Of a DNA stretch of 55,035 nucleotides, positions 4,799 to 39,400 are shown in pieces. This DNA comes from Actinomycetes bacterium. Lineage in GTDB: Bacteria; Actinomycetota; Thermoleophilia; RBG-16-64-13. The position numbers and the translations under genes are program-made. Location: the NCBI GenBank assembly GCA_021802965.1, contig JAJZQZ010000001.1:1-55035 (forward strand). Reading direction: 5' to 3'. Positions within the stretch are counted from its first letter, which is position 1. Each line of letters starts with the position of its first letter. The notes below the pieces were generated by a model. The model searched no databases. It saw only the letters and a list, made by a program, of their open reading frames with translations, and was not told the origin of the DNA.

Positions 4799-6050
4799 CC
4801 CCGTCTCCTTCCACGTCGATCTCGTCCAACCCCAAGCCCTGGTGATGCAGGATGTGCCCCATCTTGGCGGCCTTGGCCTGCAGGTAGCGGAGGTTCTGGT
4901 CCCGGGGCGCCACCTCGAGGGCGACCCGCTCGCTGATCGTCAACCCGTACCCCTCGAGGCCCACGAGCTTTCGGGGATTGTTGGTCATGATGCGGATGCT
5001 GCTGAGACCGAGGTCGACCAGGATCTGCGCCCCGATGCCGTAGTCGCGCAGGTCGGGCGGGAAGCCGAGCTCGACGTTGGCCTCGACGGTGTCTCGTCCC
5101 TCCTCCTGAAGCTTGTACGCTTTCAGCTTGTTGAGAAGCCCGATGCCCCGGCCCTCCTGGGCCATGTAGAGGAGCACTCCCAAGCCCTCCTCCTCGATCC
5201 GCTCCATGGCCGCTTCCAGCTGTTCGCCGCAGTCGCAGCGCAACGAGCCGAAGACGTCGCCGGTCAGACACTCCGAGTGGACGCGCACGAGGACGTTCTC
5301 CTTGCCGGCCACGTCGCCCTTGACCAGGGCCAGATGCTGCTCGCCGTCGAGGAGGCTCTCGTAGCCGTGGGCGTTGAAGTCACCCCAGCGCGTCGGCATG
5401 CGCACCACAGAACCCCGGTTGATCAGCTTCTCGGTGCGCCGGCGGTACTCGATGAGGTCGGCGACCGTGACCAGCTTGATCTCGTGCTGCGCGCAGTAGG
5501 GCATCAGGTCGGGCACGCGAGCCATGGTGCCGTCGTCGTTCATGATCTCGCAGATGACCCCGGCGGGATTGAGACCGGCAAGACGGGCAAGGTCGACGGC
5601 CGCTTCGGTCTGACCCGAACGTTCGAGCACTCCCCCGGGACGGGCGCGCAGCGGAAAGACGTGTCCCGGCTGGACCAGGTCTTCCGCCCGGGTGCGAGGG
5701 TCTATCGCCACCTGGATCGTGTGCGCCCGGTCGGCGGCCGAAATGCCCGTGGTGACCCCTTCGCGGGCTTCGATGGACACCGTGAAGGCCGTCTCGAACC
5801 GCGATTGGTTGTTGCGCGTCATGGGGTGAAGGCCGAGCTTGTCGGCCCGTTGCGAGGTCATCGCCAGGCAGATGAGCCCGCGGCCGTGGGTGGCCATGAA
5901 GTTGATGGCCTCCGGCGTCACGAACTGCGCCGCCATGGTGAGGTCACCCTCGTTCTCGCGATCCTCGTCATCGACCACGACCACCATGCGCCCCGACTTG
6001 ATCTCGTCGATGGCTTCCTCGATGGAAGCGAAGGCTCTGTCCCGTTCCAT
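4791..6050 (-). CDS. ribBA: bifunctional 3,4-dihydroxy-2-butanone-4-phosphate synthase / GTP cyclohydrolase II
   Basis: ORF 4791..6128. The likely start is ATG 6050, preceded by AAGGAG. Motifs [11 protein letters not shown] (DHBP synthase) and [18 protein letters not shown] (GCH II). Confidence 0.95.
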
Positions 6051-6084
6051 GATTCTCCTTTGTCTGCTCGGCCCGGTGGCCGCT

Positions 6085-6768
6085 CTATGCGTATCCCTGC
6101 TTGCGCAGCAGGCTGTCCAGTCCTCCACTCGATGCCGGAGTCGCGGCCCGGCCGGTCCCCCGTGTGGCTTCGACCCCCGCCAGGGCCTCCAGGCTCTGGC
6201 GCACGTACCGGGCGATGACGTCGGCCTCGAGGTTCACCGTCCGCCCGGGCGCGATCGTCCGCAAGGTGGTCTCAGCGAGCGTATGGGGGATGATGCCGAG
6301 CCCGAAGTCGGCTTCGCCGACGTCGGTCACGGTGAGTGAGATGCCGTCGACGGCGATCGAGCCCTTGCCGGCGACATATCCCCGCAGCTCCGTGGGCAGC
6401 GAGATGCGCACCTCCAGCGCGATGCCTCGCGTGCGCGCCGAGAGCACCCGGGCCACCGCGTCGACGTGCCCCAGCACCATGTGCCCGCCGAGGCGGTCGC
6501 CCAAAGCCATGGCTCGTTCCAGGTTGACCTCGTCTCCCGGCCGACGAGAGCCTATCGTGGTGTGCTCGAGGGTCTCGGCCATGCAGTCCACGGCGAACGA
6601 GGAGGAGTCGAGCTGGACGACGGTGAGACATGCCCCGTCGACCGCGATGGAATCGCCCAGGCGCGTGCCCCCAAGGACCCGTCGAGCGGCGACGTGGAGG
6701 TGGGCGCCCTCTCCGCGGCGGGTCAGGCGGAGGACCCGCCCGGTCTCCTCGATGAGGCCGGTGAACAT
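6085..6768 (-). CDS. ribE: riboflavin synthase alpha chain
   Basis: ORF of 227 aa with the canonical [11 protein letters not shown]-terminus and an internal repeat. Confidence 0.95.
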
Positions 6769-7907
6769 CAGGGCTCTCCTACGTAGCCGCTGAGCATGAC
6801 GTCGACGCCGCTCTTCTCCACCTCGACGTCGCGCAGGCGAAGAGCGGCATCCATGTGGTCATAACCCCGCGCCGGCAGCGGTCCAGGCGATGCGGCTCCC
6901 CCGGCCACCACGGGGGCCACGAAGGCGACGATGCGATCGATCATGCCCGCGTCCCACCAGGAGGCGGCCAGGCGCGCGCCCCCCTCGAGGAACACGCTCT
7001 GCACTCCGCGCTGGGCCAGAAGCCGGCCCACCGTGCGGGGCTCGGGGTGGCCGTCCGCTCCGAGGGGCACGGGTGCCACTTCCACAGCCCACGTGCGCAC
7101 CTCCTCGAGGCGCGCCTCCGGGATCTCGCTCGAGCACACGAAGAGCACGGGTCCCTTGTCGACCGTGCGCACCAGGGCTGCCTCACGCGCCACTTTCAGC
7201 TGCGTGTCGACCACCACTCGCAACGGTTGCCGATGGACCGGCACATCGCGAGCGGTGAGCTCGGGGTCGTCGTGGCGGAACGTCCCCGCGCCCACGAGCA
7301 CCGCGTCCGAACGCGCCCGGAAGGCGTGCACGCGCAGGCGGCTCTCCTCCCCCGAGATCCACTTGGAGTCGCCGGACTCGGTGGCCACACGGCCGTCGAT
7401 GGTCATCGCGTACTTATACGTGACGAAGGGCAGGCCCGCCGTGACGTGCTTGCGAAAGGCATCGTTCTGGCGTTTGGCTCGGTAGGCGAGGTCGCCCTCG
7501 GGCATGTCCACGGTGATGCCGGCGTCGAGGAGCCGCTGGATGCCCTTGCCGCACACCCAGGCAGAGGGGTCCTCCGCTCCCACGACCACGCGACTGACTC
7601 CCGCCGCTATGAGAGCGTCGGCGCACGGAGGCGTGCGACCATGATGGCAACACGGCTCCAGGGTGACGTAGACGGTGGCCCCCGTGAGGCGGCCGGCCGA
7701 CTCATCGCCGACGGCAGCCTTCATGGCCACGATCTCGGCGTGATCCTGGCCCGCCGCGGCGTGGAAGCCCTGGCCGACCACCCGACCGCCCACGACCACC
7801 ACGGCCCCCACGACAGGGTTGGGACTCGTGAGCCCCCGCCCTCGCTCGGCCAGGGCCAAGGCGGTCTCGAGAAAATGCCGGTCGATGTCGGTCAACGCCA
7901 CGCTCAT
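6768..7907 (-). CDS. ribD: bifunctional riboflavin biosynthesis deaminase/reductase
   Basis: ORF of 379 aa. Cytidine/dCMP deaminase zinc motif (HAEI..., TLEPCCHHGRTPPC) followed by a reductase domain. Confidence 0.95.
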   Translation of the reverse strand: MSVALTDIDRHFLETALALAERGRGLTSPNPVVGAVVVVGGRVVGQGFHAAAGQDHAEIVAMKAAVGDESAGRLTGATVYVTLEPCCHHGRTPPCADALIAAGVSRVVVGAEDPSAWVCGKGIQRLLDAGITVDMPEGDLAYRAKRQNDAFRKHVTAGLPFVTYKYAMTIDGRVATESGDSKWISGEESRLRVHAFRARSDAVLVGAGTFRHDDPELTARDVPVHRQPLRVVVDTQLKVAREAALVRTVDKGPVLFVCSSEIPEARLEEVRTWAVEVAPVPLGADGHPEPRTVGRLLAQRGVQSVFLEGGARLAASWWDAGMIDRIVAFVAPVVAGGAASPGPLPARGYDHMDAALRLRDVEVEKSGVDVMLSGYVGEP

Positions 7908-7954
7908 GCCCCTTCATCACAGGCTTCGGGGTAAGGGCGCGGGCACGCGGACGC

Positions 7955-8080
7955 GTGCTGCGGTCTTCTCCCTTCCAGACTGTGACTGTCGGCCCAGGGA
8001 TTCCACCTGGTCTGCCCCGAAGGGCTCGCGGGCTGTGACCGCCGGTAGGGAATCGCACCCAACCCCGAAGACCATGAACA
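7955..8080 (-). promoter_or_regulatory. FMN riboswitch (RFN element) leading the rib operon
   Basis: The minus-strand RNA reads GGUCUUCGGGGUUGGGUGCGAUUCCCUACCGGCGGUCACAGCCCGCGAGCCCUUCGGGGCAGACCAGGUGGAAUCCCUGGGCCGACAGUCACAGUCUGGAAGGGAGAAGACC. This matches the conserved RFN core blocks and sits directly upstream of ribD. Confidence 0.9.
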
Positions 8081-8171
8081 GATACTCCTGCTCAGACCGA
8101 GGAATCGTAGCACAGAGCAGCCTGGCCCGCCACAGTCAGGGCCCGGGCGGGGCGACCTGCGCCGCCCTCCG

Positions 8172-8872
<701 letters not shown>

Positions 8873-8873
<1 letters not shown>

Positions 8874-9826
8874 CAGTCGCCCTCCCCTCCCCCTTCGTGG
8901 GGGCACGCAAGTCTGTCGTTCAGCCGTCCGCCGTATCCCCGAAGGAATTCGGAAGCCCGCATGGAGCGCTTTCCCGAAGGTTGCACGGTAAGGAGCTCCA
9001 GCGCGCCGTCGGCGCAGCCCAGGAAGAGCCTTTGCCCTGTCGCCGCCAGGCGGCCCGTGTCGCCCGAAAGAGCCTCGGGCCCTTCGGGGAACGAGCGCCA
9101 CACCTTGAACGCGAACCCTTGCTCCGTCCGGCCCTCGCAGCCCACGGCAGGGGCCAAGGCCCGGACCCGGTCGTGCAACCGGCGGGCGGAGAGCCGAGCG
9201 TCGAGCAGCCGATCTCCAGGTCCCAGCTTCGCGGCATAGCTGCCCTCGATGGGCTGTTCGCTCCAGCGTGCCGTACCGTCGACCAACGCCTGGAGCACCT
9301 GCTCGGCGGCGAGGGCGCCGGTGAGAGCGAGGGCCCGGCCCAGACTGCCCGCGTCGTCCCAGACGGAGATGGACAGGCGGCGCTGCAACGCCCAGGGTCC
9401 CTCATCGAGCCCGCGGGTCATCCGCATGATGCTGACCCCTGTCTCCGGCTCTCCGGCCATCAGCGCCCGGACGATCGGAGCCGCTCCTCGGTAGTGGGGC
9501 AGCAGCGAGGCGTGGACGTTGACGCACAGGAACCGGGCGAGGATGTCATCGCGAAGCAGCTGACCGAACGCGGCGACCAGCAGGCATTCCGCGCCTGATG
9601 CTTCCAAGGCGGCGATGACCTCGGGATGGTTGATGTCGGCGGTCTGAACGAGGGGAAGGCCGGCCTGGTCGGCGGCGACGGCCACCGGAGGCGGAGTCGC
9701 GTGCCTTCCCCGGCCCGCGGGGCGATCGGGCTGGGAGACGACCAGCGTCGGTCGCAGACCGCGATCGACAAGGTCGGTGAGGACGTGCGCCCCGAATCCG
9801 GGAGTCCCGGCGAAGGCGAGCTTCAC
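8873..9826 (-). CDS. fmt: methionyl-tRNA formyltransferase
   Basis: ORF of 317 aa. MKLAFAGTPGF N-terminus and the HASLLPHYRGAAPI motif. Confidence 0.95.
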
Positions 9827-30737: not shown

Positions 30738-31229
30738 TCACCACGTCTCTCTTCGGGTGAGCCCGCTCTCGGCCCGCACGACCACCCGCGACCCGGATCC
30801 CGGAGCACCGAGATAGAGGGAGCGCGCGGCGTCCGGAGAACCGAACGGAGCCACGAAGCCGATCGTGACGCCCGACGGCGATCGCCAGCGCCGGACGTTG
30901 GTGGCGCAGGCTTCGTCCCGGGACCCCGCGGTGAGTTCGCCGACCCGTCCCGTCGCCCCGCTCAGGCGGAGCTCCGATCCCCGACTCACCAGCACGAGGC
31001 GCTCGCCGCGACGAGCCGAGGCGATTTCCGCCCACGCGATGGCCAGCTGCCATCGCTGGGCCGAGTTGCGAGCGTCGTGTCTTGCCAAGACGTCCCCCAG
31101 CGTCGTGGCGGGAAGAACGGCCACCAGCGCCACTATGGCGAGAACCACCAGGAGCTCGATCAGGCTGTGACCGGCGCGGGCGTCAGTCTTGAGTGAGATG
31201 GTGAACCGGATGTGTAAGGCCTCGAACAT
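30738..31229 (-). CDS. FimT/GspH-like minor pilin (module A)
   Basis: ORF of 163 aa. Leader ...TDARAG/HSLIELLVVLAIVALV, followed by a GspH-like helix and a short beta domain. Confidence 0.68.
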   Translation of the reverse strand: MFEALHIRFTISLKTDARAGHSLIELLVVLAIVALVAVLPATTLGDVLARHDARNSAQRWQLAIAWAEIASARRGERLVLVSRGSELRLSGATGRVGELTAGSRDEACATNVRRWRSPSGVTIGFVAPFGSPDAARSLYLGAPGSGSRVVVRAESGLTRRETW

Positions 31230-31321
31230 GCCGCGAGGCTATCGCGCGGCGGCCTCCCGGGTCGATGCGACCTTAGACCTACGATGCCGGCGTGACCACC
31301 CGCCCGGCGAGGATCGCTCAG

Positions 31322-31843
31322 CTACCAGCCGACGCTGCCCGCACCGTCTATGACCTTGACCTTGATGTACGAGACGCCGGTCCCATCCACGAGCGTGTCG
31401 ACCTGGATACCGTACCGGTTGCCGCTTTCACTGACGGAGCCCACATCGAAGGTGGTGGCGGTTTCCCCGTAGAAGTCGACTGCATCGTCCCTTGCAGAGC
31501 TTGTGACCGCATTGGTCACGAGGGGTCCGACAGGGTCGACAAGGTTATCGGGTGCGACGGTCCACTGTATGGCGGGCTCGATGGCAGTCAGATCATCCGC
31601 GCTGATCAAGCGGTAGTCGTGTCGCTCCATGTTGGCGCTTTCGACTACGGTGAGCGCGTTGCGAACAAGGGTCACAGCGGCCGCGTCTTGAGCCTTCATA
31701 CGCGTCCCCAGATACGTCGGGATCGCGATCGCTGCAAGGATGGCGATGATGATGATGACCACCAACAGTTCGATGAGAGTAAAACCCGCGTCACGACGTG
31801 CCTCGCACGCTTTGCCATGGAAGAGACGCACCATCATGTTCAT
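31322..31843 (-). CDS. type IV major-pilin-like protein, paralogue 1
   Basis: ATG 31843, preceded by AAGGGAGA, within ORF 31322..32197. Leader MNMMVRLFHGKACEARRDAG/FTLIELLVVIIIIAILAAIAIPTYLG with Glu at +5. The mature part is 153 aa with no Cys. Confidence 0.9.
   Translation of the reverse strand: MNMMVRLFHGKACEARRDAGFTLIELLVVIIIIAILAAIAIPTYLGTRMKAQDAAAVTLVRNALTVVESANMERHDYRLISADDLTAIEPAIQWTVAPDNLVDPVGPLVTNAVTSSARDDAVDFYGETATTFDVGSVSESGNRYGIQVDTLVDGTGVSYIKVKVIDGAGSVGW
31716..31786. repeat. about 71-nt near-identical segment shared with 34289..34359
   Basis: I count about 8 mismatches in 71 nt by eye. The segment encodes the pilin N-terminal helix of both paralogues. Confidence 0.85.
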
Positions 31844-33225
31844 CTCCCTTCGCGTGGCCGGGCCAACATCCCGAGAAGCAAGAAGAAGATAGTGTGGACG
31901 CCCGGGACAGTGATGGAAACAAGTGAGGCGGCAAGATAGCCGGCAAGCCCGCACATCACTGCCGCGCTCTCGGGACCGAGCGCACGGCGCAACGATTGGC
32001 GCGCCGGCTCCCGGCCGACTACGCAAAGCAGGAGGAAGCAGAGAAGGGCGCCGGGTATGCCGAGGGTGACCGCCAGGTTGAGCGGCTCTGAATGAGCCTT
32101 GTCCGCGACCACAGCCGGCCCTTCTCCTTCGTCGAACTGCGGCGTACGGTAGGACTCGAACACGGCCCCCATTTGATCGGGCCCCGTTCCGAACCACGGA
32201 CGGTCCCTGATGATTGCCAACGCGATCGCCCAGGTGGCAAGCCTACCGGCGTTGCGGGCATCACTGATCGAGACGGCGCTCGCGGCGTCTTTCGCCAACG
32301 AATGCGGCTCGACCACGACACGATCGCCACGGGGCACAAGAGAAACCGCAATGGCGAGCAGGGCGGCGACTGCAATCACTCCGATCAGGCGCCGGTAGCG
32401 AGATGACCGCGTCCACAGTAGAAGACCGACAAGAAGCAAGAGACCTCCGAGCGAACCGATCCAAGCCGCCCGGCTGAACGTGAAGTAGGTCGCAGCCAAG
32501 GTCACTCCGACTCCCGCGGTCCACAGCAACGCGGCGGCCCGACCGTCAGAACGGACGGCTCGGATCACCAAGATCGGCATCATCAATGTCAGATAGCCAC
32601 CAAGTACGACAGGATTGTGGAATGTCCCGCTGCTCCGAGCGTACGTCAGGCTCGTCGAGAGGCCGCTGAAGTCCAGACCGAAGTGTTGGAGGACCGCGTA
32701 TGCGCTGACGCCCACACATGTCAGGGCGGCGGCGTCTCCCACCGTGCGCCAGGACCGCTCGTCGGACATCGTCATGGCCGTGGCCATCACAACCAAGCCG
32801 GCGAACCATACGAGCAGGCCATCGTGCCGCAAAGCGCTACCCCAGACGGCACCCGAAGGATCGACCGACACCAGCGTCGATAGGGTCAGCCATCCTGTGA
32901 GGCCGAGGCCTACGACGAGGATCGGGCTCAGACGCGTGAGCGTGATCGTCCTCGTCAGGAGCGCGCATGCCCACCAAGCCGCCATGAGCGCGCCCAGCAG
33001 GAGAACCGCCTGCGCTTTGACGCCGTAGAAGCCGTCGAAACCGTCGGACGGATTGAAAGCGATGATGGGAATGGTGACAACGCCGGCCAATAGGCCTAAC
33101 CGCGCGGCGCCGAGGGCGCGACGTATCGCCACACACCTAGTCGAAGCCTGCTCGCTAGGGCTGCCGAGCGCGCAGCCGATGCTGCCTAGACTGGTCGAAA
33201 GCCGTACGTCGCGAGTACCTGCCAT
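31840..33225 (-). CDS. O-antigen ligase (Wzy_C) family polytopic membrane protein
   Basis: ORF of 461 aa with many TM segments. Wzy_C-like blocks YFTFSRAAWIGSLGG, RPWFGTGPDQ and KAHSEPLNLAVTLGIPG. Its stop overlaps the pilin-1 start by 4 nt. Confidence 0.8.
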   Translation of the reverse strand: MAGTRDVRLSTSLGSIGCALGSPSEQASTRCVAIRRALGAARLGLLAGVVTIPIIAFNPSDGFDGFYGVKAQAVLLLGALMAAWWACALLTRTITLTRLSPILVVGLGLTGWLTLSTLVSVDPSGAVWGSALRHDGLLVWFAGLVVMATAMTMSDERSWRTVGDAAALTCVGVSAYAVLQHFGLDFSGLSTSLTYARSSGTFHNPVVLGGYLTLMMPILVIRAVRSDGRAAALLWTAGVGVTLAATYFTFSRAAWIGSLGGLLLLVGLLLWTRSSRYRRLIGVIAVAALLAIAVSLVPRGDRVVVEPHSLAKDAASAVSISDARNAGRLATWAIALAIIRDRPWFGTGPDQMGAVFESYRTPQFDEGEGPAVVADKAHSEPLNLAVTLGIPGALLCFLLLCVVGREPARQSLRRALGPESAAVMCGLAGYLAASLVSITVPGVHTIFFLLLGMLARPREGR

Positions 33226-33228
33226 CGT

Positions 33229-33789
33229 CTATCCCGCCCCACCCGGCTGCCCACCTTCGAGCTTCCGCAGGATCGTCGATGCGTACCGATATCCCGGGTC
33301 CACCTTCATGACGTCAAGCAAGATGCTTCTCGCCTCAGCTGTGTTGCCGGAAGCGATCAAGCTCTGTGCCAAGAACGTCCGGTGCTTGGGGCTCGGGTCG
33401 AGAGCGACTGCCTCCTGGAAGACGCGCACCGCTGCGTCCGGTCTTGCCTGGTGGTTCAGGTAGTTGAAGGCGAGCTCGACCCGCGTCTGGACGTCGCGCG
33501 GGTCTGCTGCGATCGTCCTCTCCTGATACGGGAGGGCCTCATCGAATCTACGAAGGAGCACCAGGTTCACAGCCAGTCCCTTCAATGAAGCAAGATCGTC
33601 GGGATGGTCGGCCAGCACATCCAGGTAGAGCTCGTTCGCCTCTGCGAGCGCGCCTCGGTCCTCCAGCGCCCGCGCTCGTCCGAGCCTGGCGTCCCCGCAT
33701 GCGCTCAGCGCGATGCCGAGGCACACCATCAAGATCACCAGCTTGCCGGAGCGCCTTGCGTGTGAGAACGGGTTCATCTTTCGCCTCAT
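33229..33789 (-). CDS. TPR-repeat lipoprotein
   Basis: ORF of 186 aa (alternative start ATG 33777). Lipobox LSAC, followed by about 4 TPR-like repeats. Confidence 0.72.
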   Translation of the reverse strand: MRRKMNPFSHARRSGKLVILMVCLGIALSACGDARLGRARALEDRGALAEANELYLDVLADHPDDLASLKGLAVNLVLLRRFDEALPYQERTIAADPRDVQTRVELAFNYLNHQARPDAAVRVFQEAVALDPSPKHRTFLAQSLIASGNTAEARSILLDVMKVDPGYRYASTILRKLEGGQPGGAG

Positions 33790-33806
33790 GCCTCCTGAGA
33801 AGCGGA

Positions 33807-33835
33807 GGGGCAGGGCTCTCAGTAAGCCCTGCCCC
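33807..33835 (-). terminator. strong hairpin immediately downstream of pilin 2 (attenuator/partial terminator)
   Basis: Perfect 11-bp stem GGGGCAGGGCT / AGCCCTGCCCC with a 7-nt loop. On the minus strand it is followed by UCCGCUUCUC, which is only moderately U-rich. Confidence 0.5.
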
Positions 33836-33915
33836 TTCCAAGAACCCAGAGTGGGCCACTCAGGTGATCAGCTCAGATCGTCCTAAGCGCTCTCTCCGGT
33901 GCGATTTTTGACCGA

Positions 33916-34398
33916 CTACCAGGTTTGCGGGTTGGCGCCGATGTAGAACGTGTTGCCCGGAGCGAACGTAGTGGCGTCAGCGCTCTTATTGACATGCACC
34001 CCGAACGTGCGACCGGATTGAGAAACGGTGCCCACTTCGTAGTTGGCGCCATCCATGCCCGAGAAGTCGACCGCATTACCAGAGGCCTGCGCGGTCGGAC
34101 CGGCGGCAACGCCGCCACCCGCTCCGGCATAGACGAAGACGATCGACGGCTCGATGTCCTCCAGCATGGGCGACACGATGAGATCGAATGCGCGCGTGTC
34201 GGTGAACGCCGACTCGACGGCGGTCATGCCGTTGCGCACTAGGGACTTGGCCGCCGCGTCCTGGGCCTTCTGCCGCTGCCCGAGGAACGTCGGGATTGCG
34301 ATGGCGGCGAGGATGGCGATGATGATGATCACCACCAACAGTTCGATGAGGGTGAAACCGCCCTCGCCCTTCATCCTCTTCGAGAGTTTGCTCAACAT
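33916..34398 (-). CDS. type IV major-pilin-like protein, paralogue 2
   Basis: ATG 34398, preceded by AGGAGG, within ORF 33916..34476. Leader MLSKLSKRMKGEGG/FTLIELLVVIIIIAILAAIAIPTFLG. Shares the C-terminal block AVDF.G......VG.VS.SG...G..V with paralogue 1. No Cys. Confidence 0.9.
   Translation of the reverse strand: MLSKLSKRMKGEGGFTLIELLVVIIIIAILAAIAIPTFLGQRQKAQDAAAKSLVRNGMTAVESAFTDTRAFDLIVSPMLEDIEPSIVFVYAGAGGGVAAGPTAQASGNAVDFSGMDGANYEVGTVSQSGRTFGVHVNKSADATTFAPGNTFYIGANPQTW
34289..34359. repeat. partner of the 31716..31786 repeat
   Basis: See 31716..31786. Confidence 0.85.
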
Positions 34399-34440
34399 GG
34401 TGCCGACCTCCTGTGTTCGAGACTGTACGCACGGCACCCG

Positions 34441-34562
34441 CAAACAAAAAGGCCTGCGGTGTGCCCGGCAAACCACAGACCTGAGTCTGGTGGCAGTCCA
34501 GCCGACCCCGTGGGCCCTGTGACTTTGCGTCCCACCCTTGCGAGTGGTTTGCCCTTTGCACC
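34441..34562 (-). promoter_or_regulatory. c-di-GMP-I (GEMM-I) riboswitch: aptamer about 34489-34562 plus intrinsic terminator 34441-34481
   Basis: The minus-strand RNA reads GGUGCAAAGGGCAAACCACUCGCAAGGGUGGGACGCAAAGUCACAGGGCCCACGGGGUCGGCUGGACUGCCACC. It carries the GEMM-I hallmarks: GGGCAAACC, a GNRA-capped hairpin, GGGACGCAAAG and a second hairpin, closed by GGUGCA/UGC(C)ACC. Downstream is GGUCUGUGG, a 13-nt loop, CCGCAGGCC and UUUUUGUUUG. Confidence 0.85.
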
Positions 34563-34571
34563 TTCGCCCTT

Positions 34572-34601
34572 AGTATGCCCCCCTAGTCAAATCCTAGACA
34601 A
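34572..34601 (-). promoter_or_regulatory. candidate promoter for the riboswitch-pilin transcript
   Basis: Minus strand: TTGTCT (34596-34601), an 18-nt spacer, then CATACT (34572-34577). This would start transcription a few nt before the aptamer. Confidence 0.3.
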
Positions 34602-34769
34602 CTTTCGCTCAACATTTCGCCCGGTGTCGAATCTGGGGCGCAACGCCGGGTCTTGGGGGACTACCGCGGACGCCAGGTCTATCGGCCACCGTAGCAGGGA
34701 GCTTTAGGGGTACGCCCTACGTCCTTGGGATGACGCCGGCGGAGGAGATAGGCCCGAGGACCGGCGGGC

Positions 34770-35108
34770 TCAGCGGCTGAGGTTCTCGAGCAACCGCGTG
34801 AGTACATAGAGGCGATCCTTGTGGTCGTGGATCGCCTTCGCGAAGGTGTCGAGACCCTGGCGAAAATCTTCGTCAGCGCACAGCTGCCATGCGCCGTCGC
34901 GGTCACGTTCGAGGGCGCCTTGTGAGGACAACCGGGCGGCCGCTTGACTCAGATCTTCCGGCCGCCGGCCGATGTCGCGGGCCAGGTCGACCACCGAAAC
35001 CGATTCCGAGGCGTGAGCCGCGAAATAGATGAGGACATCCCAGGCTTCGAACGTCGACACGTATGTGTCGACGAACTTCACCAGTATGTCCCTCTCGCGT
35101 TCACTCAT
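34770..35108 (-). CDS. small winged-helix-like hypothetical protein
   Basis: ORF of 112 aa, preceded by GGGAGG. The central stretch VSVVDLARDIGRRPEDLSQAAARLSSQGALER looks like an HTH plus wing. No family recognised. Confidence 0.5.
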   Translation of the reverse strand: MSERERDILVKFVDTYVSTFEAWDVLIYFAAHASESVSVVDLARDIGRRPEDLSQAAARLSSQGALERDRDGAWQLCADEDFRQGLDTFAKAIHDHKDRLYVLTRLLENLSR

Positions 35109-35268
35109 ACGCCGGGCAGCCTCCCACGGACCCTCACCCTACAGGCGGCTCTAGTGTAGTGGGTCTGCCATAATAAGTCGAGGACATCGCCGAGCAAGGG
35201 AAGAGACAGTAGATACCGCCGATCCAGCACCAGACGACAGGGGCCCCTCCCTACGCGTCTCGGCGTGC

Positions 35269-35706
35269 GTGGTGAAACGAGGCCGCGTACTCCTGGTCGA
35301 GCAGCAGAAGGGCGCGCGCCGCTACTGGCTCCTTCCAGGCGGAGGCGTCCAACGTGGCGAGTCCCTGGTCGAAGCGCTCGCCCGGGAGGTGAACGAGGAG
35401 TGTGGCCTTCACGTGGAGGTCCTCACGCCCCCACTGGCCGTCGTCGAGACTATCTCCCCAGACGCGGGAAGGTCACGTCACCTGGTTCACCTGGTCTTCG
35501 CCGCCCGAGCCACCGGACTCGATGAACCGTCCCCCGGCGACGCCACCGTGCGCGACGCCCGCTGGTTCGGGCCCGAGGAGCTGGGTGAATTGGTGATCCA
35601 CCCTCCACTGCACGACCTGCTCGCGCGGTGGCTCGAGTCTTCCCCCGACGAGATGACCCGACCGCTGCCTCCGCAGGCCTGGGGCGGGGTGCGCTGGGTG
35701 CACTAG
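35269..35706 (+). CDS. NUDIX hydrolase
   Basis: ORF of 145 aa, GTG start. Nudix box GGGVQRGESLVEALAREVNEECG. Confidence 0.85.
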   Translation: MVKRGRVLLVEQQKGARRYWLLPGGGVQRGESLVEALAREVNEECGLHVEVLTPPLAVVETISPDAGRSRHLVHLVFAARATGLDEPSPGDATVRDARWFGPEELGELVIHPPLHDLLARWLESSPDEMTRPLPPQAWGGVRWVH

Positions 35707-35714
35707 CCCTTTCT

Positions 35715-35740
35715 CCCCGACGACACTCGTATCGTCGGGG
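35715..35740 (+). terminator. hairpin after the NUDIX gene
   Basis: Perfect 9-bp stem CCCCGACGA / TCGTCGGGG with an 8-nt loop. The T-tract that follows is weak (GCGTTCTTTGG). Confidence 0.4.
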
Positions 35741-35821
35741 CCGACTCTGCGTTCTTTGGTAAAGGTCGGGCACGTCTGTGCCGATGACGGTGTGAGGACC
35801 CCGATGACGAGGAAGGATGCG

Positions 35822-37372
35822 ATGCGTAGGCAGCGATCGGCCGGCGGTTTCACCCTCATCGAGGTCATGGTCGCGGTCCTCCTTCTTCTCGTGGCGATGG
35901 CAGGCTTCGTGCCGTTCTTCCTGCAGGGTCTCGGTCAGGCCTCTTCCACCCGCTACCGCAGCACGGCGACCAACATCGCCCGGCAGCGCATGGAGGAGAT
36001 CCGCCAGCTCGACTACCGGGAGATACCGGTGGGTGATCCTGCGCGCAACTGGTACAGCGACGCCCTGGCGACCAAGTTCGGGGTCGCCGATTCAGTGCGG
36101 GGCGCGGACTTCACGACCAGCTACGCGGTCGAAGACGTCGCCTATGGCTCAGGCAACCTCAAGAAGGTCACCGTGACGGTCACGTGGGCTGCTCCCCCGG
36201 CTCCGTCCCCCGCCATCGTGACCAGCCTCATCCACCAGCAATACTTGGGACCGCGCGGTCGCCTGCTGACGGTCGCTCCCGTCGCGGCCGACGACTTGGG
36301 CACTCCGTTCCCGCAGGTGCAGCGCACGCTCGACCAGGTGACCGTGAAATATCACATCGCGGAGGCCGACTGGGGGCTCGTCTACCCCGATCCGCAGGAT
36401 CCCGCTTCAGTGGCCTTCAACGTCTACATGCGTCTGACCCTGGTCGACGACCATGGCGCGGCGATCACCGTGGGTGATCCGGCCACGGACTATAAGATCT
36501 TGAATACCGCCCTGCAAAAGACCTGGGACACCAACGGCACGCTCACCGATGTGTACTTCGAATTCCCGTTCGATCGCCTACTGATCCCCGATGGCTACTG
36601 GGAGATGCAGGCGGTGGCGTACAACGAGTACGATGAGCCGGGCAACGTATGGCGTATGCGGCTGAGGTTCGAGGAAGGCGCCCCTAACCCGCCCACCGAC
36701 TTCATCGCGATCCCCGGAGCCGACAACCAATCGGTCATGCTCAGCTGGGTGCCCGGGATCGAGCGCGACAGAGACCATTACGTCCTGCAGCGGCAGCGCC
36801 TGAACCTGAATCCAGACCTCACTCTGAGCTACGGCCCTTGGGAGGATGTGAACACCAACCTCAGCCCCGACTCAGTCGTGTTCACCGACGTAGGCAGTGT
36901 CGCCGGCGCCAAGGACCCCTGGGGCTCCGACACAGGCAGCATCAAGATAACGAACTACTATCAGTACCAGATCTGGGCGGTCGACTTCGCTTCGACTCCC
37001 AACTCAGGCCCGCCCGCCACCGTCGGGGCCCAGCTTCCTGGCCCCACGACCACGACCACAATCGCTACGGGAGCGACGACGACCCTGGCTCCGACGACGA
37101 CCCTGGCTCCGACGACGACCCTGGGACCGACCACGACGATCTTGTCCACGGTGCAGATCGTCAACAAGACGAGCTTGGACTACTCGATCACGGTGCGCGA
37201 CTCGAAGAACCACACGGTCTTCACGGGCACTGCAGCTGGTCTTAGCACTCTCTCCATCCCCAGCCTGCCGGCCGACTCGTACTCTGTGGACGCGCGCAGC
37301 GGAAGCGCGCATCTATCCACCAGCTTCCAGGTGCCTCGGGACAACGGTCTCACCGTTCTGGAGATCCTGTAG
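35822..37372 (+). CDS. large modular PilV-like minor pilin (module B)
   Basis: ATG 35822, preceded by GAGGAAGGA (alternative ATG 35804), within ORF 35756..37372. Leader MRRQRSAGG/FTLIEVMVAVLLLLVAMAG and a PilV-like core ending KKVTVTVTW. An FN3-like segment follows (PNPPTDFIAIPGADNQSVMLSWVPG...YQYQIWAVD), then a Thr-rich linker and a roughly 75-aa C-terminal domain. Confidence 0.75.
   Translation: MRRQRSAGGFTLIEVMVAVLLLLVAMAGFVPFFLQGLGQASSTRYRSTATNIARQRMEEIRQLDYREIPVGDPARNWYSDALATKFGVADSVRGADFTTSYAVEDVAYGSGNLKKVTVTVTWAAPPAPSPAIVTSLIHQQYLGPRGRLLTVAPVAADDLGTPFPQVQRTLDQVTVKYHIAEADWGLVYPDPQDPASVAFNVYMRLTLVDDHGAAITVGDPATDYKILNTALQKTWDTNGTLTDVYFEFPFDRLLIPDGYWEMQAVAYNEYDEPGNVWRMRLRFEEGAPNPPTDFIAIPGADNQSVMLSWVPGIERDRDHYVLQRQRLNLNPDLTLSYGPWEDVNTNLSPDSVVFTDVGSVAGAKDPWGSDTGSIKITNYYQYQIWAVDFASTPNSGPPATVGAQLPGPTTTTTIATGATTTLAPTTTLAPTTTLGPTTTILSTVQIVNKTSLDYSITVRDSKNHTVFTGTAAGLSTLSIPSLPADSYSVDARSGSAHLSTSFQVPRDNGLTVLEIL
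37075..37128 (+). repeat. 3 x 18-nt tandem repeat (GACGACGACCCTGGCTCC) encoding TTTLAP repeats
   Basis: Two perfect copies and a third with 2 mismatches, inside the Thr-rich linker TTTTTIATGATTTLAPTTTLAPTTTLGPTTT. Confidence 0.9.
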
Positions 37373-37389
37373 ATGGAGGAGACGTCGGA

Positions 37390-38136
37390 GTGAGGCGCTT
37401 GCTCGCGGGTTCGATCGATTGGAGTCGCCGACGGCTGTGCGCCGGGTCGGCCGAAGGACAGTCCGGCTTCAGTCTGGTCGAGTTGCTGGTGGCCATGGTC
37501 GTGCTCATCGTGGTGATGGGCGCGACCTTCGGCATCTGGCTCGGCCTCGAGAATGTCTACACCTTCACGAACGACGACATGGTGGCCCAGGAGCAGGCTC
37601 GGACCGCCATGGGCGAGATGGTGGAGCTCATCCGCACGGCTCGGAGACCGGCGACTGTTCCCGACGAGGCTCTGAACGCCGTCATGCCGGTCGCCGGCCG
37701 CACCGAGCTCACTGTCTGGAGCGATGTGGACCGTGCGCCCGATCACGGGCTCGAGCTGATCCGCTTCCGGGCCGATCACCCGGCCGGCGCCCCTAATGAA
37801 CAAGTGCTCTATCGTGACCAAGCGACGGTCGGGGCGAGCAGTCGCTCCTGGACGTCGGAGCGCCTGGTCACGCCAAACGTCAGCAACTGGTTCGACCCTG
37901 CCAGACCCAGCGACGAGACCGGCTGGCTCTTCTCCTATTACAACGGAGCGGGAGAACGCCTGCTCTTCGACGACGAGATCCTTGGCTATACCGGGACCAT
38001 CGAGCACGTGATCCCCGATCCCAACTCGATCCGGGAGGTGCGGATCAATCTGTTGGTGGACCTCTATAAGGACCGGGCCCCCATCACCCATCAGCTCACC
38101 TCAGTCGTCCAGCCACGGAATCTCCGGCAGTACTGA
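37390..38136 (+). CDS. PilW-like minor pilin (module B)
   Basis: ORF of 248 aa. GTG start preceded by GGAGGAG. Signal ...AEGQSG/FSLVELLVAMVVLIVVMG. Confidence 0.7.
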   Translation: MRRLLAGSIDWSRRRLCAGSAEGQSGFSLVELLVAMVVLIVVMGATFGIWLGLENVYTFTNDDMVAQEQARTAMGEMVELIRTARRPATVPDEALNAVMPVAGRTELTVWSDVDRAPDHGLELIRFRADHPAGAPNEQVLYRDQATVGASSRSWTSERLVTPNVSNWFDPARPSDETGWLFSYYNGAGERLLFDDEILGYTGTIEHVIPDPNSIREVRINLLVDLYKDRAPITHQLTSVVQPRNLRQY

Positions 38137-38146
38137 TACTCGGGAG

Positions 38147-39400
38147 ATGAACATGCACAGTTGCGATTCGCAGACGGACACACGGCCGGGCAGGGTGCGT
38201 CTCACCACGAGCGACGGCTCGGCGGTCATCATCGCGATGATGTTCATCCTCGTGATGCTGGGGTTGGGAGTCGCCCTCTTCACACTCATCAAGTTCTCGA
38301 TCAACGGAACCGAACTCGAGCGCAAGGAGGTGAAGGCGTTCAACGTGGCGGAGGCCGGGATCGACGCCGGCATGCTCGCCCTGAAGCTCGAGTGGCCGGA
38401 CCAGATCGCCACTACGGTCGACGCAGTCGCTCTGAGAAACCACTTCGACGCCAACGTGTTCAGGGATCCTTCGCGCAGCTCTCCCAGCGAGTTCATCCAG
38501 GTCGCGCTCTACGACAACAACGGTACGACCGACTACAGCGACGCAAATCCGGCCGTCGACCTAGACAGCGAGAGTGCATCCGGACCTGGGGACCCCCGGG
38601 GGGATGACATGATGTGGGTGGATAGCCGGGCCAACGTCGACGACGACCGCCACCGGATCCTCGTCCTCGCGAAGCGGGAGCGCTGGAACCTCAATCTGCC
38701 GAACAAGGCCCTGTTCGCATCGACACTGATGGCGAATCCGAACGTCCGGGTCGCCGTGGACAGCGCTTCCACCCCGCCTTCCCAGACCGACCTCGCCGTG
38801 TACTCCGCGCCCGACCCGCGGGATGTGGAGTTACTCGACGGCGTGACGCAATATGCCGGGGCCCCCGATTGGTCGCAGTGGATAACCTCGGGAACCACGG
38901 GCAAGCTTCAAAGCGTGGCCAAGGCTTCAGGCACGTACTTCGACGACGATCCAGGTACCCCCTATCCGAGCATCGCGGAAGGGGTCGACCTGCTCGTGAA
39001 CGGAGACCCGAGCGGCAAGATCATCTACCTGAAGTCGAGCACTGCGATCGAGATCGCGGGCAACACCCAGATCGCGACACGCGAGCACCCTGTGGTGCTG
39101 GTCATGGATACGCCGTCGACCGTCACGAACGCCCTCGACTTCAGGGGCACGGCCGACTTCTACGGCGTGGTGATCAGTCTCAGCAACCTCCAGGCGCGGG
39201 GGACTTCGTCGTTCTACGGCTCCGTGCTCTGCGCCGGCCAGTTCGACAACCGTGGGCGAGGCGTCAGCCCCGAGATCAACTACAACGGCGACATCATCGC
39301 CATGCTCAGCCGCAAGTTCACCATGAGCGTCTCGATCGTGCCCAACACGTGGCAAGAGTATACGGTACCCAACACCACCCTCGCCGTCGCGGGCGGGTAG
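38147..39400 (+). CDS. PilX-like minor pilin / putative tip protein (module B)
   Basis: ORF of 417 aa; ATG 38153 has the better spacing to GGGAG. PilX_N-like start DGSAVIIAMMFILVMLGLGVALF...AFNVAEAGIDAG. Large C-terminal part. Confidence 0.65.
   Translation: MNMHSCDSQTDTRPGRVRLTTSDGSAVIIAMMFILVMLGLGVALFTLIKFSINGTELERKEVKAFNVAEAGIDAGMLALKLEWPDQIATTVDAVALRNHFDANVFRDPSRSSPSEFIQVALYDNNGTTDYSDANPAVDLDSESASGPGDPRGDDMMWVDSRANVDDDRHRILVLAKRERWNLNLPNKALFASTLMANPNVRVAVDSASTPPSQTDLAVYSAPDPRDVELLDGVTQYAGAPDWSQWITSGTTGKLQSVAKASGTYFDDDPGTPYPSIAEGVDLLVNGDPSGKIIYLKSSTAIEIAGNTQIATREHPVVLVMDTPSTVTNALDFRGTADFYGVVISLSNLQARGTSSFYGSVLCAGQFDNRGRGVSPEINYNGDIIAMLSRKFTMSVSIVPNTWQEYTVPNTTLAVAGG

Follow-up and report, generated by a model that had tools for sequence, protein, structure and literature searches.

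A modular type IV minor pilin with a four-part C-terminal extension in an uncultured member of the Thermoleophilia

The stretch of 55,035 nucleotides (nt) analysed here, which is called the window throughout, corresponds to positions 1 to 55,035 of contig JAJZQZ010000001.1 (assembly GCA_021802965.1), from an Actinomycetes bacterium of the Thermoleophilia lineage RBG-16-64-13. On its plus strand, it contains a gene whose product of 516 amino acids (aa) is a genuine modular type IV minor pilin. The pilin module is followed by an immunoglobulin (Ig)-like domain, a fibronectin type III (FN3)-like domain, a Thr-rich linker, and a small terminal beta-sandwich, and the protein belongs to a family that, as judged from sequence searches, is lineage-restricted and uncharacterised. 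By analogy with known pilus subunits, it is moderately probable that the pilin module, a stalk, a tether, and a terminal head together constitute a tip adhesin held on a flexible line within a minor-pilin tip complex. The parts of the gene are listed below, with scores from the AlphaFold2 (AF2) models given as the predicted local distance difference test (pLDDT) and the predicted template modelling score (pTM).

35810-35818, plus strand: Shine-Dalgarno-like GAGGAAGGA, purine-rich, 4-12 nt before the ATG, read from the sequence
35822-37372, plus strand: modular minor prepilin gene, 516 aa, stop codon included (translation, homologues, AF2)
35822-35848, plus strand: leader peptide MRRQRSAGG, with a predicted prepilin-peptidase cut after G9 (N_methyl, TIGR02532)
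35849-36232, plus strand: pilin module, PilV/GspI-class-like, aa 10-137, with a hydrophobic alpha-1 helix and a small four-strand core (AF2)
36233-36691, plus strand: Ig-like (E-set type) beta-sandwich, aa 138-290 (own model, pLDDT 92.3, pTM 0.85)
36692-37036, plus strand: FN3-like domain, aa 291-405; a conserved DPWG lies in an inserted loop (Foldseek, Pfam matches of homologues)
37037-37141, plus strand: Thr-rich linker (47% Thr), aa 406-440, predicted disordered (pLDDT <50 at 425-437)
37074-37137, plus strand: 18-nt tandem repeat inside the linker, 3.6 copies (Tandem Repeats Finder score 107, 93% matches)
37142-37369, plus strand: C-terminal seven-strand beta-sandwich, aa 441-516, of prealbumin-like or type IX secretion system C-terminal domain (T9SS-CTD)-like shape (AF2)

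The frame at 35822-37372 (plus strand) is free of internal stops, and all the sequence features that an earlier note on this DNA had listed for it are present in the open reading frame (ORF). The canonical short leader and methylation motif described in that note, MRRQRSAGG/FTLIEV, form a class III signal that exceeds the cut-offs of both Pfam N_methyl (PF07963, 24.9 bits vs 21.2) and TIGR02532 (17.3 bits vs 16.3), and T11 and E14 (position +5) are invariant, and G9 nearly so, across 35 aligned homologues. An AF2 model built from the alignment of these 35 full-length sequences reached a mean pLDDT of 83.1 and a pTM of 0.64 over the whole protein and showed two sandwiches behind the pilin module (146-283 and 295-404), then a segment of low confidence (406-440), and finally a sandwich of seven strands (442-516). 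Structure prediction had been proposed as a check of the modular-pilin reading, and these confident, separate domains and the low-confidence linker bear that reading out. The FN3 fold and the separate confident domains mean that a pilin module is joined here to folded domains that are not specific to pili. The long extension that had been claimed is present as well, its length being approximately 379 residues and not approximately 350; none of its domains exceeds a Pfam threshold in the window protein.

A word-indexed search yielded 118 relatives, approximately 100 of them full-length (470-570 aa), with 40-53% identity, from metagenome-assembled genomes labelled Thermoleophilia, Gaiellales, Actinomycetota or 'Actinobacteria bacterium RBG_16_64_13', and an exhaustive search of 50%-identity representatives returned 806 proteins at E<=1e-3, of which 33 reached E<=1e-30. 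The homologue alignment is collinear from the leader through the last strand. When residues 138-516 were searched at E<=1e-10 in 300 other genomes of the same GTDB class, a match was obtained in 25 of 55 genomes from the GTDB family to which the window belongs, and the 245 genomes of 11 further families gave none; elsewhere in the source genome, which is 78% complete, the three extension domains have no paralogues at E<=1. That the long ORF might be an assembly or annotation artefact, in which a short pilin gene is fused to the gene of a secreted protein, has a practically negligible probability: nothing was found for it, the unusual length being its sole prompt, and it is opposed by a continuous frame without an internal signal, by the same full-length architecture in more than 100 independent assemblies, and by an AF2 chain that passes directly from the last pilin strand (131-137) to the first Ig-like strand (146-152). 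A fusion artefact of two genes, which the earlier note had named as a risk to its own reading, was therefore rejected, given the full-length architecture of more than 100 homologues and 25 syntenic genome loci. In several species representatives (loci L012 and L022-L026), the homologous gene shows interruptions or only a partial match, which may be due to frameshifts within the Thr-rich region or close to it, or to C-terminal halves that have diverged.

The Ig-like domain is the best-conserved piece of the extension and was also modelled by itself (residues 138-292) from 20 locus-derived sequences. Foldseek related it to generic Ig-like/E-set sandwiches, including NPC2/ML proteins (TM-score 0.55-0.58) and RhoGDI, with the GH5 mannanase ManDH5 at the top rank and a best E value of just 1e-4. 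A specific fold was consequently rejected for this domain, since even a model with a pLDDT of 92 matched generic sandwiches, and no lectin or enzyme could be named. Of the 'extra beta domains' previously described behind the pilin core, the beta-rich character holds, but there is a single Ig-like domain and not several. The core is joined to it by a near-invariant HQQ[FY]LGPR motif (HQQYLGPR in the window protein, aa 138-145, 36233-36256).

The next sandwich is assigned to the FN3 fold. The whole model matched tandem FN3 proteins in Foldseek (RPTP sigma, LAR, contactins, insulin receptor, and fibronectin) at E values of 1.5e-9 to 1e-7, and a sequence profile search of the PDB gave weak matches to the FN3 domains of RPTPs (E 0.04-0.4) on the PPTDF...LSW segment. 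The 516-aa protein itself has no match to Pfam fn3 (PF00041) at E<=0.1, so that the FN3-like segment proposed earlier stands at the level of the fold (Foldseek E of approximately 1e-9) and of homologues but not as a Pfam domain of this protein. At the aligned position, the cut-off of 25 bits is passed by the distant homologues P0141 (28.7 bits) and P0150 (26.1 bits); the higher score of a third homologue, P0147 (41.9 bits at 400-483), belongs to a later FN3 and not to the aligned one. Because of the Foldseek matches and of the homologues above the fn3 cut-off, the FN3 call is sound at the fold and homologue level.

The protein closes with the beta-rich domain of approximately 75 aa that had been described from the sequence, which AF2 renders as a seven-strand sandwich at 442-516 (strands within 442-515, pLDDT 81-96). 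The PDB profile search gave no significant sequence match for it, the value against 8glk_D being E 0.018, and the sub-threshold matches of the 35 homologues are mixed: Por_Secre_tail in eight, CarboxypepD_reg in three, and SpaA in three. A named identity for the terminal domain was rejected on these two grounds. A T9SS type A sorting domain (PF18962 / TIGR04183) was likewise rejected, as the 516-aa protein has no match to it and the eight homologues match weakly (best E 1.5e-5); the resemblance to a T9SS-CTD is that of a common small-sandwich shape only. An Asn-x-Ser/Thr triplet (NKT, aa 448-450, 37163-37171) in the first strand of this domain is nearly invariant family-wide.

The FN3-like and terminal domains are separated by the Thr-rich linker, and a period-18 array found by Tandem Repeats Finder confirmed that part of it is encoded by an 18-nt tandem repeat, as had been noticed from the sequence; the repeat translates to TTTLAP/TTTLAP/TTTLGP. 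All 35 aligned homologues have such a linker, with 24-43 aa and 37-64% Thr and without conservation of the sequence itself, so by alignment the Thr-rich linker is a family trait. Linkers of several related genes contain decayed repeats of 18-24 nt; therefore, the clean repeat of the window would have arisen locally by a recent duplication, in keeping with how this segment evolves. With regard to the copy-number variation that the earlier note considered plausible, two metagenome scans turned up no near-identical strain. The linker could plausibly be O-glycosylated, but this idea lacks support and stays speculative. A Wzy_C gene (31840-33225) lies beside the pilin gene in the window and in the loci of just four other species, and a general link between the Thr-rich linker and a neighbouring Wzy_C gene was rejected, since Wzy_C is a local feature and the linker a universal one; the genome has approximately nine Wzy_C genes. 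Moreover, at least 16 other long ORFs of the genome contain 30-residue windows holding 16-20 Thr, lipoprotein tethers among them, which suggests that Thr-rich linkers are a genome-wide linker style. Such frames are located on contigs C251, C219, C87, C236, C124, C106, and others, several of them after a lipoprotein-like CGG, and the frame on C106 has TTTTLAP repeats resembling the linker of the pilin.

The pilin module consists, in the AF2 model, of helices at 12-61 and 77-86 and of strands within 89-137, the last being 95-122 and 131-137, and the KKVTVTVTW segment corresponds to strand 111-122 of this core. The best-scoring minor-pilin model is PilV (TIGR02523), with 31.1 bits against a cut-off of 52.2 that is not reached, and the match is confined to residues 8-62 and the first approximately 55 model positions; the same weak PilV match occurs in 33 of the 35 homologues, and one to GspI in 16. 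Because the TIGR02523 score is sub-threshold, the protein is described as PilV/GspI-position-like and is not filed as PilV. The other PilV-like gene of the window has nothing in common with this pilin core past the N-terminal helix. The position of the gene is best seen together with its two partners.

37390-38136, plus strand: PilW-like (GspJ-position) minor prepilin, 248 aa, second gene of the unit (N_methyl, 26 bits)
38147-39400, plus strand: PilX/GspK-position protein, 417 aa, third gene of the unit (weak N-terminal GspK match, E 0.029)

The intergenic gaps in this three-gene unit are 17 and 10 nt, and the order of long pilin, PilW-like, and PilX-like (approximately 400 aa) genes is found in all 25 loci that extend far enough; this conserved order is that of a core minor-pilin priming set (PilV-W-X / GspI-J-K). 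Where contigs reach further, the unit is followed by dut and an aminotransferase gene on the opposite strand, and on its upstream side are a second set of minor pilins and the divergent genes of the major pilins. The genome encodes one prepilin peptidase (Peptidase_A24, 64.2 bits) and has seven matches to the T2SSE family of ATPases, including an adjacent PilB-size/PilT-size pair (frames of 624 and 360 aa on contig C62). The pilin locus (window positions 31000-39000) has a GC content of 63-65%, compared with 67-71% in the flanking housekeeping genes, a difference of just 2-5 points that is not decisive for horizontal acquisition. Several of these features could also be explained if the three-gene unit built a type IV filament other than a pilus, either a secretion pseudopilus or a Com-like DNA-uptake filament, whose long subunit would bind cargo or DNA. 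The several T2SSE-family ATPases, the two minor-pilin sets and two major pilins of the locus, and a weak N-terminal similarity to ComGE in 31 of the 35 homologues, in addition to that to GspI, are compatible with such a filament. However, the ComGE and GspI matches are all sub-threshold and restricted to the common N-terminal helix, the unit adjoins major pilin genes with the same promoter type, and Pfam and NCBIfam scans found no DNA-binding or secretion-specific domain; this explanation thus appears quite improbable.

The architecture of the extension varies among relatives in a manner that is informative about its role. Between the FN3 and the terminal domain, the spacer can be Thr-rich, a PASTA domain, or a second FN3: PASTA replaces the linker in 11 relatives and the second FN3 does so in more distant proteins of approximately 570 aa, the terminal sandwich being retained in both cases. 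The stalk can also be exchanged. Sister genomes of the same family without a match to the extension have the pilin core in four of the five probed (31-33% identity, frames of 440-490 aa), and in the two long PilV proteins of these genomes that were scanned against Pfam, the core is followed by CarboxypepD_reg (PF13620; 62-64 bits, cut-off 32.3), then by a linker rich in Thr and a prealbumin-like domain at the end. In one sister genome (G040), the slot between the major pilin and dut is likewise occupied by a V-W-X triad, which is inverted and begins with the gene of this type. Thus, the same layout, with a pilin, a stalk of sandwiches, a Thr-rich tether, and a small sandwich at the end, is built from different modules in these relatives. 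Sister-genome triads were located at 5834-9555 of locus L033 (G040:C2) and also in loci L029-L032, and HQQ[FY]LGPR is missing from the CarboxypepD_reg version of the long PilV. Comparison of these sequences favours an outward-facing, adaptable function, to which the exchange of stalk and spacer between relatives would point, and the PASTA spacer of one sub-branch hints at cell-wall glycans as a possible ligand.

The same set of relatives provides arguments for a structural role of the extension, which is a rather unlikely explanation but one with observations in its favour. The extension would then prime or stabilise the filament in a thick-walled monoderm and not act as an adhesin; the Ig-like and FN3 domains would either dock onto the large PilX-like partner or reach across the cell wall, with the terminal domain in contact with the organism's own envelope. 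Mean pairwise identity is 0.58 in the pilin core, 0.53 in the Ig-like domain, 0.44 in the FN3 domain, 0.46 in the linker, and 0.42 in the terminal domain, and the high conservation of the first two, with the near-invariant motifs HQQ[FY]LGPR, ADW, PDGYW, and EPGN, speaks for this role. The lack of a paralogue of the extension elsewhere in the genome fits this role as well, and the sub-branch with PASTA, a module known from peptidoglycan-sensing proteins, supports it. Nevertheless, the replacement of the whole extension by unrelated CarboxypepD_reg domains in sister genomes fits an exchangeable outward-facing module better than a fixed assembly interface, and displayed domains are typically borne on long, disordered tethers rich in Thr.

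In the favoured reading of a tip adhesin, the leader would be cleaved and the pilin module would join the two partner minor pilins in a filament-priming complex, comparable to those of GspI-J-K and PilV-W-X, a membership that would leave the protein at the pilus tip. The stalk would be formed by the two rigid sandwiches (Ig-like and FN3) and the tether by the Thr-rich segment, probably extended and possibly O-glycosylated, with the terminal sandwich as the module that contacts the ligand. The 'candidate adhesive tip subunit' of the earlier note is, in this respect, a reasonable analogy with characterised modular pilins (PMC8179133), at the level of inference only. Several points weigh against this reading. 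The placement at the pilus tip is drawn by analogy, the host organism is uncultured, and the PilV call combines a sub-threshold match (31.1 vs 52.2 bits) with gene order. The profile search of the PDB matched the N-terminal helix only, and the globular pilin core has no significant sequence relative there. The Ig-like and terminal domains match generic sandwiches only and, therefore, no ligand can be named. Conservation is highest in the pilin core and the Ig-like domain and not in the terminal domain, which also fits a structural or assembly role. With regard to the tether, a GT39 mannosyltransferase (PMT) was not found in the 78%-complete genome, and Thr-rich linkers are common in this genome and, therefore, not specific to the pilin.

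The expression of the unit may be linked to a sigma factor of the flagellar type, for which the following candidate was found.

35760-35787, plus strand: flagellar/WhiG (sigma-28)-type promoter candidate TAAA-N16-GCCGATGA, 34 nt before the ATG

For the looser pattern TAAA-N14-17-GCCGAT, 0.05 occurrences were expected in the window and two were found, the second copy (34706-34681, minus strand) facing a riboswitch-led pilin gene and forming a divergent pair with the first. In its strict form, the motif has two occurrences in the 3.2-Mb genome and none in a reversed control. Of 23 loci of related species, 14 have the same motif on the plus strand ahead of the homologous gene, mostly together with a divergent copy on the minus strand. 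A FliA/WhiG sigma factor (277.7 bits vs a cut-off of 189.6) is encoded in the genome, and no flagellin was found in it. The other strict motif of the genome, TAAA-N15-GCCGATAA, is located at G000:C262:8768-8794, directly downstream of a sigma-factor-like frame (C262:7982-8578). In Rubrobacter, type IV pilus genes have been reported to be under WhiG-type control (PMC8325347), and the likeness extends to a deep-branching actinobacterial host, a TAAA / GCCGAT(A/G)A promoter before pilus operons, and a FliA/WhiG factor; unlike in Rubrobacter, the promoter of the long pilin is a prediction from sequence alone. A broader and more tentative proposal, regarded as unlikely, is that the second minor-pilin unit would be an exchangeable recognition cassette, placed in a fixed chromosomal slot from the major pilin to dut, whose tip subunit would set the partner or substrate specificity of the pilus, for instance in cell-cell or cell-wall recognition, and which would be switched by the WhiG-type sigma factor and by the c-di-GMP riboswitch on the divergent pilin gene. 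The versions of such a cassette would be the Ig-like and FN3 stalk with a Thr-rich tether, the forms with a PASTA spacer or with a second FN3, and the unrelated CarboxypepD_reg form in the inverted triad, each of them ending with a small sandwich domain on a tether.

Modular type IV pilins, in the sense of Raynaud et al. (2021), are an established category of more than 1,200 reported proteins with 264 architectures, and FN3 (IPR003961) and PF13620 are among the 15 commonest of these (PMC8179133). FN3-bearing and other modular pilins are, therefore, already catalogued (PMC8179133), and the long pilin is not unprecedented. Examples are displayed as adhesins by the pili of Streptococcus sanguinis, namely PilB, whose module is a vWA domain, and PilC, whose module is a lectin (PMC8179133, PMC9934059). 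As in the protein of the window, these consist of an N-terminal pilin module and C-terminal domains that are not pilus-specific, occur in a monoderm host, and are encoded among minor pilins thought to form a tip complex. Unlike them, the window protein has four parts after the pilin and not one, a long disordered Thr-rich tether where they have a short loop, and a small PilV/GspI-position pilin as the carrier; moreover, its extra domains lie under Pfam thresholds and are known from sequence and models alone. Another parallel is provided by CofB of enterotoxigenic E. coli and TcpB of Vibrio cholerae, large type IVb minor pilins with a proposed location at the tip and a proposed role at the start of assembly (PMC8179133). 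Both are similar in size (approximately 500 aa) and in having a pilin domain, a linker, and two beta-rich domains, but they represent a different pilus class; no sequence relation was detected, and neither appeared among the matches of the PDB profile searches. Type IVb systems are not known to have PilW-like and PilX-like partners, whereas the long pilin gene has both. PilV (TIGR02523) and GspI (TIGR01707), which are the best-scoring minor-pilin models, share with the long pilin a small globular core and a gene that comes first in a V-W-X-like order, but in their canonical forms, they lack a C-terminal extension. A four-part design on the smallest core minor pilin is not described in the papers that were consulted.

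Almost no work exists on the type IV pili of deep-branching Actinomycetota that are uncultured, and the long-pilin family provides a concrete and well-folded candidate for the pilus part that meets the outside world. It extends the idea of modular pilins to a four-part 'stalk, tether and head' carried by the smallest core minor pilin and leaves the concept itself unchanged. In addition, the family comes in natural variants, with three types of spacer and with a different stalk at the same chromosomal position, and these could help to find out what the pili bind.

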